Of a stretch of 64,000 bases of DNA, positions 52,326-57,987 are shown one piece after another (positions within the stretch are counted from its first letter, which is position 1; every line of letters starts with the position of its first letter). The stretch is from Picochlorum sp. SENEW3 (lineage: Eukaryota): assembly GCA_034226945.1 (NCBI GenBank), contig CP120457.1:744001-808000 (forward strand), written 5' to 3'. The translations under genes were made by a program, and so were the position numbers. The notes beneath the pieces were generated by a model. It did not search any database and was not told where the DNA came from. It saw only the letters and a list, made by a program, of their open reading frames with translations.

Positions 52326-53876
52326 TTATGATTCTGACATTCTTCTCCCCCTCATTCCGGCCAAAATAGTAGCTGCCATCATTTCACATTTTCGAGAAGT
52401 CTCCCCATCATCCTTTCTTTTCCTTTGGACTGCGCCATGATCACTCTCTTGTACCGGACTTGGAGTCTCTACCTGCCTGTCCCTTCTATTTGAACTTGGT
52501 CCTGTGGTACCGAGTTGGGATGGCCATGCATGTCCTGATGGGCTTGTACCAGAAGCGTTCTGAGCTTTGCACAGGGCCTTCGAGTCTCTCGTAAGACTAT
52601 CATGTGTGACATCCACTGGCATAGTGATGTTGATATCGCTCACAATTCCCAGAGTATGGGCTTTGTATAGAATGGAAGAGCACAAGCGGACAAGGCGGCA
52701 CAGTTCGTCCTGTTGGTGTCCAGTACCGATCTGGCGGGACGCATCCAAAGCATCAGGATGTTTTGGTTGTCCATTGAATCCTGGAAGAGAATCTTCGGTA
52801 GGAATTTCTCGACATGTTGGCTGCGGCAAGACAGAGTCAGGGGACGTATCAAAAGCATTCTGCTCTGATGTGTCGCCACTACCATCTCCTGCTGGTACCA
52901 TTTTTTGTCGCACCGGAGAACGCGGAGAAATATCATCATCCTGTAGGCCATCAAATTTTGGTGGTGAGCCTTGGAGTAGATCCCCTTTGCAAGACTGCGG
53001 CAAAGACCCATTGAAGCCTTGTGCTAATGTGTCACCATCTGCCCCACTTCTTGGCTGCACAGCGCGCGCAGCAACACGCCCTGCGTTATCATTATCTGGT
53101 GATCTTTGGCGCTTACCATTGCCACTCGATGGCGATGGGTACTCTCGAGGATTGATAGCCCTTTCCAGGCGCTCAGATGAAGTAGATGTCAGAATAGATG
53201 CTTTCATCAGCGAGATCTGCGATTCCCTAAGTTTAACGGCATCCTCCCCCTTGATTTTCCTGGAGAGACTTCTGTTCGTCGAGCTTAACAGCGCCTTCCA
53301 GTTCTGATTCCGTGCGAGATCACTATGGCTACCATTGCACCGGATATATGTACAAAGAAGGACACGGATGCATACTGCTGCAGTTCTTGTCAAATCTCCG
53401 AATCTATTCAGCTGCATTGACGCCTCAAAAACCATGGAGAGCTCCGTTTTGGCTTCTGTAACTATGGAGGAGGATTTCTCCAATGAAGGTTTGAAATCAT
53501 CAGTCGACACTATAAAAAACCTATGTGATGTGCTGCTTCCTTTACTGTCTTCTGGATAGACGATAAGATTTGCATCACCCATGAGACATTTCACTATTCT
53601 TTTGAATTGTCTATATACACTTTCTGCTGAAAATTCTTCGGGAAAAGTGATTTCACAGTGGACAAATGGCAGTTGTCCACCTTCCAGAAGACTGAACCTG
53701 TTGCAGGTGTGATGAAGTCCACATCGAACCTCGATCGTTCTATTCGTCTCATGTTCATAATAAATCTCATGGAGTTTGGTTCTGAGACCTTCCTGGAATT
53801 CGTCGCTAAAGTAGGCCATTGTTCGTTCGTTTGGCAAAGAAAGAGAAAAAGAAAGCAAGAAAACCCCGAAAAGCAC
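52326..53876 (-). CDS. Hypothetical protein with disordered C-terminal half; start may be 53819
   Basis: 516-aa ORF; C-terminal AATILAGM short motif; no family recognised. Confidence 0.55.
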   Translation of the reverse strand: MLFGVFLLSFSLSLPNERTMAYFSDEFQEGLRTKLHEIYYEHETNRTIEVRCGLHHTCNRFSLLEGGQLPFVHCEITFPEEFSAESVYRQFKRIVKCLMGDANLIVYPEDSKGSSTSHRFFIVSTDDFKPSLEKSSSIVTEAKTELSMVFEASMQLNRFGDLTRTAAVCIRVLLCTYIRCNGSHSDLARNQNWKALLSSTNRSLSRKIKGEDAVKLRESQISLMKASILTSTSSERLERAINPREYPSPSSGNGKRQRSPDNDNAGRVAARAVQPRSGADGDTLAQGFNGSLPQSCKGDLLQGSPPKFDGLQDDDISPRSPVRQKMVPAGDGSGDTSEQNAFDTSPDSVLPQPTCREIPTEDSLPGFNGQPKHPDALDASRQIGTGHQQDELCRLVRLCSSILYKAHTLGIVSDINITMPVDVTHDSLTRDSKALCKAQNASGTSPSGHAWPSQLGTTGPSSNRRDRQVETPSPVQESDHGAVQRKRKDDGETSRKCEMMAATILAGMRGRRMSES

Positions 53877-54553
53877 TCTATGCTATATCACCGTTGCCTC
53901 TGCATATCGGAAATAGCAACATGTCTATGAATCGTTGTGAATCGGATAGAACAAGCCGCGACAAAGTGTTTGTGACAGAATTGTTGATTCGAGATGTTCG
54001 AGTAGTAGATGTCGCTCGCAGCGGTTGAAACCGTTTGTAGTGATAAAAACGGGCTCCAGACACATATATACATCAATATTTCATATCTATGTGATACTAA
54101 TCACATATGACAGCACGTACAAGAGTTTCGGTTCGAAGTTGACTTTGCGCTCGGCTACTCTGCTCTACTCTCAGCACTTGAGAAGAAGAAAAGACAGTCA
54201 GTGCCTAAACAGAGAATAATTACTACTGCTGTTTGATATATAATATGAATTGGAGGGCTATTACATGCTGCAGTGCCTCATGATGGCGGAGTTTTGCTGA
54301 TTAGTGTGTCCTTCAAAGCGCGGGTAAATTCAAAATCCTAGGATTCCGTTGACATCCTCTGTCAAAGGCTTTTTTTGAAAGGATCGTAGGAAACCCTTCC
54401 CTGAGATGGTAAATGTATCCCATCAAAAGGAGCATTTGACCGGACATAGAAGATACGTTAGGAGATGTCACAGTATCTTGGTCAAAATCAACTTGTGGTG
54501 TGATTTACAGATGAATATACATGCATAGAAGAAGACAATGATGTAGAAAAGGT

Positions 54554-54559
54554 AAAAAA
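54554..54559 (-). terminator. RNA polymerase III oligo-dT terminator of the permuted tRNA gene
   Basis: TTTTTT on the minus strand, starting 6 nt after A37. Confidence 0.75.
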
Positions 54560-54565
54560 GCAGGT

Positions 54566-54668
54566 TGCAAAGCAGATACTCTAACCACTGAGCCACAGCC
54601 CCTTTGACCGGACGGTACATCGTCAGCCACACTGGAGCTGGGAGGAATCGAACCCCCGACCCTCTGCA
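54566..54668 (-). tRNA. trnA-UGC: Circularly permuted tRNA-Ala(UGC): 3' half (nt 38-73) at 54668-54633, 30-nt spacer, 5' half (nt 1-37) at 54602-54566
   Basis: 5' half GGGGCTG TG GCTC AGTGGTTA GAGT A TCTGC TT TGC A; 3' half T GCAGA GGGTC GGGGG TTCGATT CCTCC CAGCTCC A; all four stems pair; G3:U70 and A73 Ala identity elements present. Confidence 0.92.
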
Positions 54669-54789
54669 GGTTTGAAGACTTCATATGTAGAATTTTTTCT
54701 AGGATGTGAACTGTGTTTTAGCAACACGCGGGACAGCGGATCCGACCGCCCCTTGGCGGTGTGCTGAAGAAGCAAGAGAATGAGAAAAT

Positions 54790-55290
54790 CTGGTCACACC
54801 ACAAAGTTGCTGCTTGCGTGGGCGGCCTCCTCGTGAGGGAACCCGGCTGCCTGTGCGACTGAGGAAGCTTGGGGTGTCAATGAGAAGCGCCCACGTTGCA
54901 AGTGGTTCCTTCCTGGTGGCCCGTGCCTGTCAGGAGACAGAGCAGTGGCCGCCAGCTGGGTGTCCAGATACCATTCCAGGCATGTGAGGATTGCACTCAC
55001 TAAAAACTCACTCCCACACCTCGGGATTGAGCCAAGGCGCTCGACAGGAGGAATGTTGCGCTGCTTGTCTGGCCAGACTTCTGCACCATAGCCGCGGGAG
55101 GATAGGGTATCGTTGATCACCATCTTCTTCATCGCCACTTACTTCTGCCATAGTGGCTGTGGAGACCACTGTATTGATGGTGGTGAGTCCCAGGTATGTA
55201 TACTGATCCACAACTGGAACAACAGCAGATCATCATCTCCTGAGGAAAGAAGCTTGCGATTCCAGCAAGAGTAATCCTCCACGTTACTGG
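54790..55290 (-). mobile_element. Degenerate non-LTR retrotransposon (LINE) ORF2 fragment; ends uncertain
   Basis: Frameshifted motifs WRITLAG / VPVVDQYTYLG (late RT) and YGAEVW (post-RT), in LINE order; GC-richer than flanks. Confidence 0.6.
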
Positions 55291-55387: not shown

Positions 55388-55808
55388 TCAAAAATGAGTA
55401 TGTTTCCACTGCATGAGGGCTTCCTTCTCTGCATCCGACAACTTTGTTCCCACAATCTCGTCCAACGCAGACTTTTCCGCGGCAAGAACTCCTTTGGCAG
55501 AATGGACATCGTGCTTCTCTGCTTGAGCACGAACCTTGGTCAGCAGCTCTTTCAAGAGTTTTTCATCCTCCTTTCTGAAAAAGATGGCCTCCTCAGCATT
55601 CTCCTTGTCATCATATCCTATACATAAATAAAATGTCAACAATTGGATGCAAGAAAGAATACTAATGATGCAACAGAGACAAACCTTTAAGTCCCGCAAG
55701 AGACCCTGCGAATCGTTCCTCGCACAACCGACCGCAACCCAAAACATTCCTGCTCCGCCCAAATAGATTCATTGCTTTCTTTCCTGATGTAAGAACGCGA
55801 AGAAGCAT
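55388..55808 (-). CDS. Mitochondrial F1Fo ATPase inhibitor (IF1)-like protein; 2 exons
   Basis: Mitochondrial presequence-like MLLRVLTSGKK...; DDKENAEEAIFFRKEDEKLLKELL. Confidence 0.75.
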
Positions 55809-56046: not shown

Positions 56047-57987
56047 ATGATACAAAAGAAAAAAAAAATGAATGGGAAGGGTAATCACGAAGAAGACTCT
56101 GTGGTGTATATAACCGTGATTGGTGACCAGGGCGTCGGGAAGACGTCTTTGATCGCTGCTGCTGCGACGGAAACATTTCCCGACAACCCTCCACCGGTTC
56201 TTCCACCTGCCAAATTACCGGCAGATACCACACCGGAAGGAGTTCCAGTCGTAATTACAGACACGAGCACGAGATCAGAAGACAAAGAAGCGCTGGAAGC
56301 AGCATGTCGGCAAGCCAGTGTTATTGTGCTCTGTTTTCGGATGGAGAAGTTGGAGAGTTTAAGAAGAATTTCCTCATATTGGATGCCAGAGTTGAAACGA
56401 CTACATGTTCAGGTTCCTGTCCTGTTGGTCGGTTGTAAGAGTGATATTCGACCAGCTGATCAGTCTCTGCACAAAGCTGTGCTTCCGATCGTTAAATCGT
56501 ATCCTCAGATTGAGACATGTATGGAATGTTCGTCCAAAAAGCTGCAGTTTGTTGGAGAAGTATTCTATTACGCGTTGAAGGCGGTTGTGTACCCGATGAC
56601 ACCGCTATATGACCCAGAGAGCCAGTTGCTCCAACCACTGTGTGTTCGGGCATTGAAAAGGATATTCGCACTGTGTGACCAGGATAAAGATGGGGTTTTA
56701 AATGATATAGAGCTCAATGAGTTCCAGATGAGATGCTTTAATGCACCGTTGCAGCCAGAGGAGCTTGCTGGTGTGAAAGAGGTGGTCAAGTCTCGAATGG
56801 AAAATGGCCTCTCGCCAAAGGGTTTCCTCACATTTCAAGGGTTTTTGTTCCTCCATGCTTTATTTATAGAACGGGGCCGATTGGAGACGACGTGGGCTGT
56901 CCTATCGAAATTTGGCTATGGGAAGGACCTGAAGCTCAGGGGTGAACTTTTGATGCTGAAGACTGCACAAGACACGCCAATGCAACTAACAGAATTCGGA
57001 GAGACCTACTTTTATGACATATTCAATAAATTTGACGCCGATAATGACGCTGCCTTATCGGCAAGAGAGCAAGAAGACTTGTTTTCATCATTTCCTGAAG
57101 CTCCGTCATTATTGCAGAGAAGTAGTACAAGTTCTGGCATTATTTTTGAGCGAACAAAGAAAGGCCTTTTGACTCGCAATGGTTTTATGGCAATGTGGAA
57201 TTATTTAGCTACCAAGTCACCCAAAGAGTTGATAGCAAGTGCCATTTACTTGGGACTTGATTGTGAGAAAGATGGAGCAATTCTCGCCCAATTATTAGAA
57301 CCAAGAAAAATGCAGGAGCCCAAAGTAGTACAGTGTAGTTTGTTTTCTCATGATGAGATGGATGTTTCAGAGGCAATCGCAGGACTGGTGCAGCCAAACA
57401 ACCAGTCATCATCCAGTGTGATCTTGGGCTCTGCCGGACTTGTTGAAAAAAACAACAAAACTAGTACTCTGGTTCTGCGATCGGTGCCTCTATCACTGGC
57501 GCCTACAATTATTGAAGCCAGTGATAGATCTTCTCGCTTATCTACGTTGGATGCCGCCGCCTTTGCATTTGACTGGTCCAAGCCCAAACAAATTTCAACT
57601 CTTGTAGAAGGCATGCTTTCACTAGCATCTGCCGCAGGGGACACTCTGCCGTGTATTTTAATAGGTTTCAATAGAGATCAAGCTTCAGAGTCTTTCGTTG
57701 CGGAAGTTCAAATGATCTGTGACAGCCTAGGAATATCAGAGCCATTGAATTTTGACCCCAGGGACAGTGGCAGTGTGTACAGTAATCTCGTTGATGCCGC
57801 ATCAACGCCTGAGGGACATATTCCAGAGACCCCGTCTCTCATAGCAACCAAACGGCACAGGCGCCTGGTGGCTCGTATCACAATGTATGCTGGAATTGGT
57901 ACCCTGGTTGGCATTGCGGGATACTTATCATACAGAGCATACCGTGATTATCGATCCTCGACCGACCGGGCAGCTACTGCTACATAA
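56047..57987 (+). CDS. MIRO: Mitochondrial Rho GTPase
   Basis: GDQGVGKTSL; EVFYYALKAV; EF-hands DQDKDGVLNDIEL and DADNDAALS; FIERGRLETTW; C-terminal tail anchor. Confidence 0.95.
   Translation: MIQKKKKMNGKGNHEEDSVVYITVIGDQGVGKTSLIAAAATETFPDNPPPVLPPAKLPADTTPEGVPVVITDTSTRSEDKEALEAACRQASVIVLCFRMEKLESLRRISSYWMPELKRLHVQVPVLLVGCKSDIRPADQSLHKAVLPIVKSYPQIETCMECSSKKLQFVGEVFYYALKAVVYPMTPLYDPESQLLQPLCVRALKRIFALCDQDKDGVLNDIELNEFQMRCFNAPLQPEELAGVKEVVKSRMENGLSPKGFLTFQGFLFLHALFIERGRLETTWAVLSKFGYGKDLKLRGELLMLKTAQDTPMQLTEFGETYFYDIFNKFDADNDAALSAREQEDLFSSFPEAPSLLQRSSTSSGIIFERTKKGLLTRNGFMAMWNYLATKSPKELIASAIYLGLDCEKDGAILAQLLEPRKMQEPKVVQCSLFSHDEMDVSEAIAGLVQPNNQSSSSVILGSAGLVEKNNKTSTLVLRSVPLSLAPTIIEASDRSSRLSTLDAAAFAFDWSKPKQISTLVEGMLSLASAAGDTLPCILIGFNRDQASESFVAEVQMICDSLGISEPLNFDPRDSGSVYSNLVDAASTPEGHIPETPSLIATKRHRRLVARITMYAGIGTLVGIAGYLSYRAYRDYRSSTDRAATAT

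Follow-up and report, generated by a model that had tools for sequence, protein, structure and literature searches.

Can a locus in which the 3′ half of a tRNA is encoded upstream of its 5′ half be a working tRNA gene, and how might such a gene yield its product? This question is raised by a short region on the minus strand of a 64,000-nucleotide stretch of DNA (hereafter the window) from Picochlorum sp. SENEW3 (assembly GCA_034226945.1, contig CP120457.1, positions 744,001 to 808,000). An earlier note, written from the sequence alone, had proposed that this region carries a circularly permuted nuclear tRNA-Ala(UGC) gene. We consider it likely that the locus is a working gene of this kind in a Picochlorum-like alga (Chlorellales, Trebouxiophyceae), belonging to type II, in which the coding sequence is broken between tRNA positions 37 and 38 (37/38). 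The structural part of this reading, a permuted tRNA-Ala(UGC) broken at 37/38, holds in every testable respect. That the gene functions is very probable and is supported indirectly by an intact cloverleaf, a possible helix-bulge-helix (hBH) motif at the junction, a terminator-like run of six T residues (T6), and halves in which a relative has no listed change. The RNA-processing steps, the promoter, and the use of the product in translation are proposed below by analogy with the known family.

A complete tRNA-Ala(UGC) in reversed halves

The layout that had been proposed for the minus strand consists of a 3′ half, a 30-nt spacer, a 5′ half, the trailer ACCTGC, and T6, and every one of these elements lies where it had been placed (Table 1). 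When the two halves are re-joined in silico at 37/38, ARAGORN calls a 73-nt tRNA-Ala(tgc) with a 7-bp acceptor stem, a 4-bp D stem, a 5-bp anticodon stem, and a 5-bp T stem, so the complete cloverleaf claimed for this join is recovered. The re-joined tRNA also has the anticodon stem and UGC loop that the earlier note described, together with the alanine determinants G3:U70 in the acceptor stem and A73. As read from the sequence, the eukaryotic consensus positions U8, A14, G15:C48, G18G19, U33, and T54-T55-C56 are present, and the variable loop is 5 nt long. CCA is not encoded, and GTG comes after A73.

The A-box-like and B-box-like motifs are both perfect and stand in reversed order, and transcription would therefore have to use upstream elements, as has been proposed for known cases (PMC3978253). 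Two A/T-rich elements, A6TT and CATATG, are found no more than 35 nt upstream of the 3′ half, and neither is a clear TATA box at the standard distance. The T stretch sits after the 5′ half, no T run occurs in the spacer, and the leader ends in CAAACC directly before U38. A scan for bacterial-type promoters and terminators, a type of scan that is not applicable to RNA polymerase III (Pol III), returned 0 sites.

Table 1. Features of the permuted tRNA-Ala(UGC) locus, with positions given in the window.
Feature	Position	Strand	Remarks
Leader and A/T-rich upstream stretch	54669..54702	minus	A6TT run (about -32 to -25) and CATATG (about -19 to -14); putative Pol III promoter region, by analogy
Leader -6 to -3 (CAAA)	54671..54674	minus	Pairs with U32 U33 U34 G35 as a 4-bp helix H
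3′ half, 36 nt, U38 to A73	54633..54668	minus	Anticodon-stem 3′ strand, variable loop, T arm, acceptor 3′ strand
B-box-like GGTTCGATTCC in T arm	54654..54644	minus	Within the 3′ half
Spacer, 30 nt, between A73 and G1	54603..54632	minus	No T run; own hairpin atop the acceptor stem in the minimum free energy (MFE) fold
5′ half, 37 nt, G1 to A37	54566..54602	minus	Acceptor 5′ strand, D arm, anticodon-stem 5′ strand, loop 32-37 UUUGCA
A-box-like TGGCTCAGTGG in D arm	54595..54585	minus	Within the 5′ half
Trailer ACCTGC	54560..54565	minus	Directly after the 5′ half
T6 run, expected Pol III terminator	54554..54559	minus	After the trailer
Candidate decayed duplicate of leader, 3′ half, and spacer	54435..54548	minus	Weak repeats, a hint only

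Pairing at the junction and a proposed route of maturation

An hBH motif at 37/38 is the description given for green-algal and nucleomorph permuted tRNA genes (PMC3978253). Predicted pairing supports the view that the present locus can form a relaxed hBH motif matching that of green-algal type II (37/38) genes. All nine pairs of the anticodon stem and helix H (9/9) are Watson-Crick pairs, and helix H is flanked by two 3-nt bulges, CC|U38 and C36 A37|A(+1), in which the cuts would come after the second bulge base. The pair A(-3):U32 is the anticodon-intron pair, of which eukaryotic endonucleases make use (PMC3978253). With helix H added, the cloverleaf has an energy of -25.07 kcal/mol versus -25.57 kcal/mol without it, and this cost of 0.5 kcal/mol makes the helix energetically neutral. 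The MFE fold of the precursor holds the T arm and the D arm, together with the acceptor stem closed by the spacer hairpin.

On the model of the known family, maturation might proceed as follows. Pol III would start in the short A/T-rich upstream region and make a single RNA that comprises the leader, the 3′ half, the spacer, the 5′ half, and the trailer, stopping at T6. This precursor would fold into a near-complete tRNA body with the spacer closing the acceptor stem, and the CAAA stretch of the leader would pair with U32-G35 at the open anticodon loop to present the hBH motif to the tRNA-splicing endonuclease. The endonuclease would take off the leader and the trailer, and tRNA ligase would join A37 to U38 to produce a circle. 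RNase P and tRNase Z would then excise the spacer, and CCA would be added; this pathway of spacer removal is drawn from the review of permuted tRNAs (PMC3978253). Finally, G3:U70 and A73 would make the product a substrate for alanyl-tRNA synthetase.

Specificity of the call and missing outer halves

The earlier note had also stated that standard tRNA scans miss permuted genes. Indeed, ARAGORN and an Rfam scan at gathering thresholds both found 0 tRNAs in the linear window. The window was also cut into 1062 overlapping 300-nt segments, each of which was run in ARAGORN as a circle with an intron allowed. Among these circularized segments covering the whole window, only the present locus gave a tRNA: three segments that hold the entire locus were called as Ala(tgc) with an "intron" at position 38, and one segment that cuts the locus produced a spurious Leu call. 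The same 1062 segments read as linear sequences gave 0 tRNAs, as did five block-shuffled windows that were circularized in the same manner (5 x 1062 segments). A permissive scanner for T-arm, acceptor, and D-arm combinations reported 159 candidates in the window; it was too loose and was superseded by the circularization scan.

The earlier note had further reported that the outer halves are absent. This absence stands when 200 nt are examined on each side. No likeness to the 5′ half occurs in the 200 nt upstream, where the best match is 6 nt (shuffle p 0.80), and no likeness to the 3′ half occurs in the 200 nt downstream, where the best match is 5 nt (shuffle p 0.98). The flanks on both sides are unique sequence within the window. 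As a separate observation, an 11-nt inverted repeat at 54493-54503 and 54794-54804 brackets the locus (about 65 nt downstream and about 130 nt upstream), and since repeats of such lengths are common in the window, it may be due to chance.

Recurrence of the arrangement in other public runs

Part of a 601-nt stretch around the locus is present in twenty public runs, and contigs from four of these runs (X5, X6, X10, and X15) were aligned to the window at a likeness of at least 80%. These contigs are uninformative in places; for example, X15 offers no cover past 54570 and X6 and X10 offer none over 54673-54723. A 212-nt contig of X5 (record 20) spans 54565-54777 and thus bridges the leader, the 3′ half, the spacer, and the 5′ half. 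Of its 13 substitutions, the 12 that are listed comprise one in the spacer (54615) and 11 in the leader or further upstream, and its gaps (5 letters) consist of 2 nt inserted in the spacer and 3 nt deleted upstream. Within the leader, this contig differs at positions -1 and -7 and has no listed change at positions -3 to -6. A second contig of X5 (record 16) joins the 5′ half, from about nucleotide 9, to the trailer and the downstream flank, with changes at trailer positions +2 and +4 and a 9-nt deletion that is placed beyond the T run. In X6, a 202-nt contig (record 22) that is identical to the window extends from the downstream flank through the trailer and the 5′ half to include 21 nt of the spacer. 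A contig of X10 (record 6, 54562-54662) runs through the 5′ half and the spacer and covers most of the 3′ half, and the one substitution listed out of its three lies in the spacer.

When the variant rows of all four runs are considered together, the 40 listed are divided between the spacer (4) and the flanks (36), and none affects any of the 73 tRNA positions (6 more rows exist). The tRNA parts therefore look constrained in near relatives, while the spacer, leader, and trailer drift. Because contigs of other runs reproduce each junction (X5 records 16 and 20, X6 record 22, and X10 record 6), the arrangement is not an assembly accident, and the misassembly that the earlier note had named as a danger to its proposal is not what these contigs reveal. 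The search for the same arrangement in relatives, which that note had recommended, was likewise successful in contigs of three other runs (X5, X6, and X10), all of them from near relatives.

Several contig ends hint at additional genes of a similar form. In X6 (ends at 54668 and 54672) and X10 (end at 54666), the same or nearly the same 3′ half stands behind two other leader types, which read CGAA and CUAA at positions -6 to -3 rather than CAAA. Position -5 is the one that varies, with C(-6), A(-4), and A(-3) unchanged. These leaders may fit Ala(CGC) and Ala(AGC) genes that share helix H and that are either permuted or merely intron-bearing. G(-5) of the CGAA leader could instead wobble with U34, and the corresponding 5′ halves lie outside the contig ends displayed. 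Furthermore, homologues of the downstream flank (54476-54559) are found behind other sequences in X15 record 11 (93% alike) and X5 record 14 (about 82% alike). The sequences that precede these homologues end like tRNA 5′ halves, with the loops CUCACA and CUGUAA, a short trailer, and a T run. The X15 contig has a depth of 232 versus 5-15 for its neighbors, and a flank repeat could be common to several permuted tRNA genes. The alternative leaders and the ends resembling 5′ halves are each seen in single contigs with at most 30 displayed letters, and we treat them as leads only. One other contig end (X6 record 23) was considered as a joint of this kind and was rejected, because it belongs to a linear tRNA that is unrelated and has a GAC anticodon arm.

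Weighing the evidence

A number of observations weigh against a working permuted gene or reduce what can be built on it. The nearest TATA-like motif, at about -19, does not leave the distance that a standard start site needs. A strict bulge-helix-bulge (BHB) motif would also include an outer helix h′, formed by trailer +5 to +9 with leader -14 to -10, and this helix is weak: two of its five pairs are G-U, it is set across a 6x3 internal loop, and the X5 relative has lost one of the pairs. Owing to its two G-U pairs, its 6x3 loop, and its loss in this relative, h′ was not counted. The precursor fold is no better than those of shuffled sequences (z 0.36), which is usual for tRNAs and gives no support. 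The contig matches show the presence of the sequence rather than its expression, and the absence of change in the halves holds for the listed rows, which cover 12 of 13 substitutions for X5 record 20 and 1 of 3 for X10 record 6. One X10 contig, with a depth of 5 and 30 letters on its shorter side, joins A73 to 54549 in the downstream flank, with no spacer or 5′ half between them and 16 nt of the trailer missing; this joint could represent a differently arranged relative or an artifact of metagenome assembly. Moreover, the scans for tRNAs covered the 64-kb window, and the genome may hold a linear tRNA-Ala(UGC) elsewhere. Inosine-34-type Ala(AGC) together with Ala(CGC) could in principle suffice for every GCN codon, and the permuted gene therefore need not be essential.

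Among the explanations that compete with a working gene, the least improbable, although still unlikely, is that the locus is a non-functional leftover. In this view, an ordinary and possibly intron-bearing tRNA-Ala gene was duplicated in tandem, the duplication decayed so that the locus is its inner portion, and a linear gene elsewhere supplies the tRNA. Weak collinear repeats, discussed below, hint at a decayed second unit downstream, the X10 contig with the odd joint could derive from a differently arranged allele, and a linear copy may lie outside the window. Indeed, some organism in the X6 metagenome has a linear gene of the Ala(UGC) type whose T arm is the same (record 26 and a loose end). 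However, neither half is damaged, each conserved tRNA position is kept, and T6 is found exactly where a terminator is needed, with none in the spacer. A relative whose spacer and leader have been altered has no listed change in the halves or in the four leader bases of helix H, and a dead remnant is not expected to retain both halves along with the junction pairing. An assembly artifact, such as a collapsed or mis-joined tandem array, is a much weaker contender that we regard as scarcely credible. Tandem repeats of tRNA genes do occur in green algae (PMC3978253), and there is the one odd joint in X10, but every junction recurs in contigs of other runs and studies, and both flanks are unique in the window.

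It is also very improbable that the two halves are transcribed separately and brought together as a split tRNA. A CAA-containing motif at the end of the spacer, just before G1, resembles the one just before U38, and plant tRNA genes often start at CAA. Nevertheless, the 30-nt spacer lacks an A/T-rich promoter-like stretch, and without a T run between the halves the upstream transcript should read through into the 5′ half. The adjacent acceptor strands also form a closed hairpin, and split tRNAs are known only from archaea according to the review (PMC3978253). We give as little credence as to a misassembly to the idea that the locus encodes a tRNA-like, non-decoding RNA, either a Y-RNA-like molecule of the YrlA type or an element resembling a permuted transfer-messenger RNA (tmRNA). 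At a permissive threshold, cmscan does report matches over the locus to YrlA (23.2 bits), tmRNA_permuted (23.1 bits), and beta_tmRNA (21.4 bits), yet the gathering scores of 69, 47, and 84, respectively, are all far above these values. The matches cover only the T arm and the acceptor hairpin that are common to any tRNA-Ala, the one to tmRNA_permuted involves model positions 36-93 of 213, and ARAGORN finds no tmRNA. In addition, the locus has both sides of a complete anticodon arm (UGC), no tag reading frame, and no Ro-binding stem, and it sits among nuclear eukaryotic genes. A pattern for the permuted order matched nothing in 185,579 prokaryote genomes and nothing in viral contigs. A working permuted tRNA-Ala(UGC) gene thus continues to be the reading that we favor.

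Possible origin of the arrangement

The favored model for how permuted tRNA genes arose is that an intron-bearing gene was duplicated and the outer exons were then lost (PMC3978253). Perhaps the present locus retains a trace of such an event. Leader positions -24 to -6 (54692..54674) resemble trailer positions +18 to +35 (54548..54531) at 17 of 20 aligned columns (shuffle p 0.02-0.04), and the spacer segment 54626..54603 resembles 54461..54435, about 165 nt downstream, with an exact 11-mer included (p 0.006). Both likenesses are collinear. A global alignment of the leader, 3′ half, and spacer with the region from the trailer through the second spacer copy has p values of 0.0035 against shuffled sequences and 0.0255 against random pieces of the window. 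The trailer ACCTGC also repeats the ACC|TGC found at the boundary between the leader and the 3′ half. A tandem duplication whose second unit has decayed would be compatible with these repeats, which we take as a hint. Several facts caution against reading too much into them. The register of the alignment is not unique, the p values are modest, and the putative ancestral intron would have contained T6. No likeness to the 5′ half was found beyond the second spacer-like repeat (p 0.88).

Genomic setting and searches in other sequence collections

The window has a G+C content of 43-46% and is densely packed with long open frames. Neighbors with Pfam matches include an RNA polymerase large subunit, a poly(A) polymerase, a Miro GTPase (56047-57987), and a Sec7/GBF1-type ARF-GEF, which place the locus in nuclear eukaryotic DNA. 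The best named relatives of the Miro protein come from the Chlorellales, namely Nannochloris (58% over 67% of the query) and Chlorella vulgaris (53%), other proteins reach 92% and 71%, and its cluster at 60% identity includes Picochlorum soloecismus. Published Picochlorum genomes are 13-15 Mb in size with 44-46.5% G+C and about 80% coding sequence (PMC6141220). Judged from this one protein and the style of the genome, the host would be a member of the Chlorellales that is close to Picochlorum and has a compact genome. The flanking genes on the same strand as the locus, 55388-55768 (minus) and 52326-53819 (minus), have no Pfam match; the former encodes 126 amino acids with a charged, probably helical tail, and the latter encodes 497 amino acids rich in serine and proline.

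Searches for syntenic loci by means of the Miro protein returned 0 in viral contigs and 0 in contigs of prokaryote genomes. In metagenome contigs, a 29-nt pattern from the 3′ half matched at least 119 loci that are essentially all of bacterial type, indicating that the pattern is too generic. Among the 120 metagenome matches listed, none has a 5′ half downstream of the 3′ half, and 83 are ordinary linear tRNAs. Some of the matches deserve separate mention. Ten bacterial-type loci from marine metagenomes (L004, L024, L036, L047, L048, L058, L073, L090, L097, and L103) carry a tRNA-Ala(UGC) 3′ part, from the anticodon loop onward, behind unrelated sequence and without a 5′ part, and they look like duplicated tRNA 3′ ends at the integration sites of mobile elements. 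The re-joined tRNA is identical at 66 of 73 positions to a linear bacterial-type tRNA-Ala(UGC) (L012, with 19 copies among the matches listed), a likeness that is partly built in because the matches were chosen by the shared 29-nt pattern.

A tentative wider reading and its significance

If the leads described above are combined, it can be speculated that the permuted layout in the Picochlorum/Nannochloris lineage is a hidden class that extends over several tRNAs. This speculation joins three claims, and we consider it doubtful that all of them hold at once. One claim is that the alanine isoacceptors could share one 3′ half while their leaders or introns co-vary with the anticodon, such that CAAA, CUAA, and CGAA at -6 to -3 would stand opposite U34, A34, and C34. 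Another is that other 5′ halves, with Val-CAC- and Tyr-GUA-like loops, could precede homologues of the same downstream flank. The remaining claim is that the locus could still bear the decayed second unit of the founding tandem duplication of an intron-bearing gene.

The published nuclear tRNA counts for Picochlorum are low (PMC6141220). They amount to 42, 24, and 75, of which the latter two come from tRNAscan-SE runs on available assemblies (PMC6141220), and such low and uneven counts would fit the presence of undetected permuted genes. Should the hidden class be real, these low counts would reflect unannotated permuted genes, and the lineage would offer a young and datable example of how permutation arises.

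Even the single gene has practical implications. Picochlorum species are fast-growing, salt- and heat-tolerant algae that are used in biotechnology. Genes of this kind are invisible to ARAGORN, Rfam, and default tRNAscan-type scans, and decoding tables and codon-optimization work may therefore miss tRNAs. The usefulness of the finding lies in annotation and in dating how permutation arises rather than in any new mechanism.

Comparison with known systems

The review of permuted tRNA genes lists 34 examples with spacers that range from 1 to 74 bp, and it describes as family features a T-stretch after the 5′ half, an intervening sequence without signals, and, in eukaryotes, no encoded CCA (PMC3978253). 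The present locus fits the family in its T-stretch, its signal-free spacer, the 30-nt length of that spacer, and its lack of CCA. Permuted genes usually also have a TATA-like or A/T-rich element within 50 bp upstream (PMC3978253). The families YrlA (RF02553) and permuted tmRNA (RF04321) share with the locus a T arm followed by a closed acceptor hairpin, including the alanine-type G3:U70, but the locus differs from both because it falls below their gathering scores, has a full anticodon arm, and resides in a eukaryotic nucleus.

The closest structural counterparts are the type II genes of Ostreococcus and Micromonas (Maruyama et al. 2010, via PMC3978253), which share with the present locus the order of the halves, their location on one strand, the 37/38 junction, the hBH motif, the T-stretch after the 5′ half, and the absence of an encoded CCA. 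The spacer of 30 nt falls within the range of 5-64 bp given for green algae and the nucleomorph (PMC3978253). All 19 green-algal permuted tRNA genes listed in the review are from Ostreococcus or Micromonas, and these genes mostly specify Ser, Leu, Cys, iMet, Arg, and Asn, with none for Ala (PMC3978253). In contrast to these Mamiellophyceae, the present gene belongs to the Trebouxiophyceae, encodes an Ala(UGC) that is not among their 19, and is known from DNA alone.

The earlier note had suggested that the gene might be a new record for its lineage if the host were a trebouxiophyte. The host is indeed a trebouxiophyte, but permuted tRNA genes have been reported in another member of this class, Auxenochlorella UTEX 250-A (Craig et al. 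2025, Plant Cell, PMC12636532), and novelty at the level of the class is therefore lost. That record means that both the Trebouxiophyceae and the Chlorellales, the order to which Auxenochlorella also belongs, were already represented. Its genes likewise have their 5′ and 3′ parts reversed, and they likewise came to light because standard scans gave an incomplete set of tRNAs (PMC12636532). The one example shown for Auxenochlorella is a tRNA-Pro(UGG) (PMC12636532) as opposed to the Ala(UGC) described here, and the Picochlorum/Nannochloris group is distinct from Auxenochlorella within the Chlorellales.

Elsewhere, red algae, O. tauri, and the Bigelowiella nucleomorph are the only cases cited in the accessible part of a 2026 review on the tRNA repertoires of photosynthetic organisms (PMC13578239), and the accessible portion of PlantRNA 2.0 mentions permuted genes only for Cyanidioschyzon merolae. 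Full-text searches of the openly readable literature found no report of permuted tRNA genes in Picochlorum, and for the Trebouxiophyceae the openly readable literature, judged partly from listings, gave no further report of other nuclear examples. Permutation is likewise unmentioned in the accessible parts of two Picochlorum genome papers, one of which gives nuclear tRNAscan-SE counts and the other organellar tRNAs only.

C. merolae is the only organism for which the review lists a permuted Ala(UGC) gene (Soma et al. 2007, via PMC3978253), and this gene shares with the present one its amino acid, its anticodon, and the general logic of maturation. However, the C. merolae gene is of type IV, broken at 59/60 in the T loop, with an 8-bp spacer (PMC3978253), whereas the gene described here is broken at 37/38 and has a 30-nt spacer. 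Given these differences in junction and spacer, the two genes are independent in origin. After Auxenochlorella (2025), the present lineage would be the second within the Chlorellales with the permuted layout, and Ala(UGC) at 37/38 would be added to the list of permuted isoacceptors. This distribution supports the repeated origin of permutation wherever Pol III transcription from upstream promoters and a tolerant splicing endonuclease coexist (PMC3978253). The mechanism is not new; what is new here is the Picochlorum/Nannochloris lineage within the Chlorellales and the isoacceptor Ala(UGC) for the 37/38 type.

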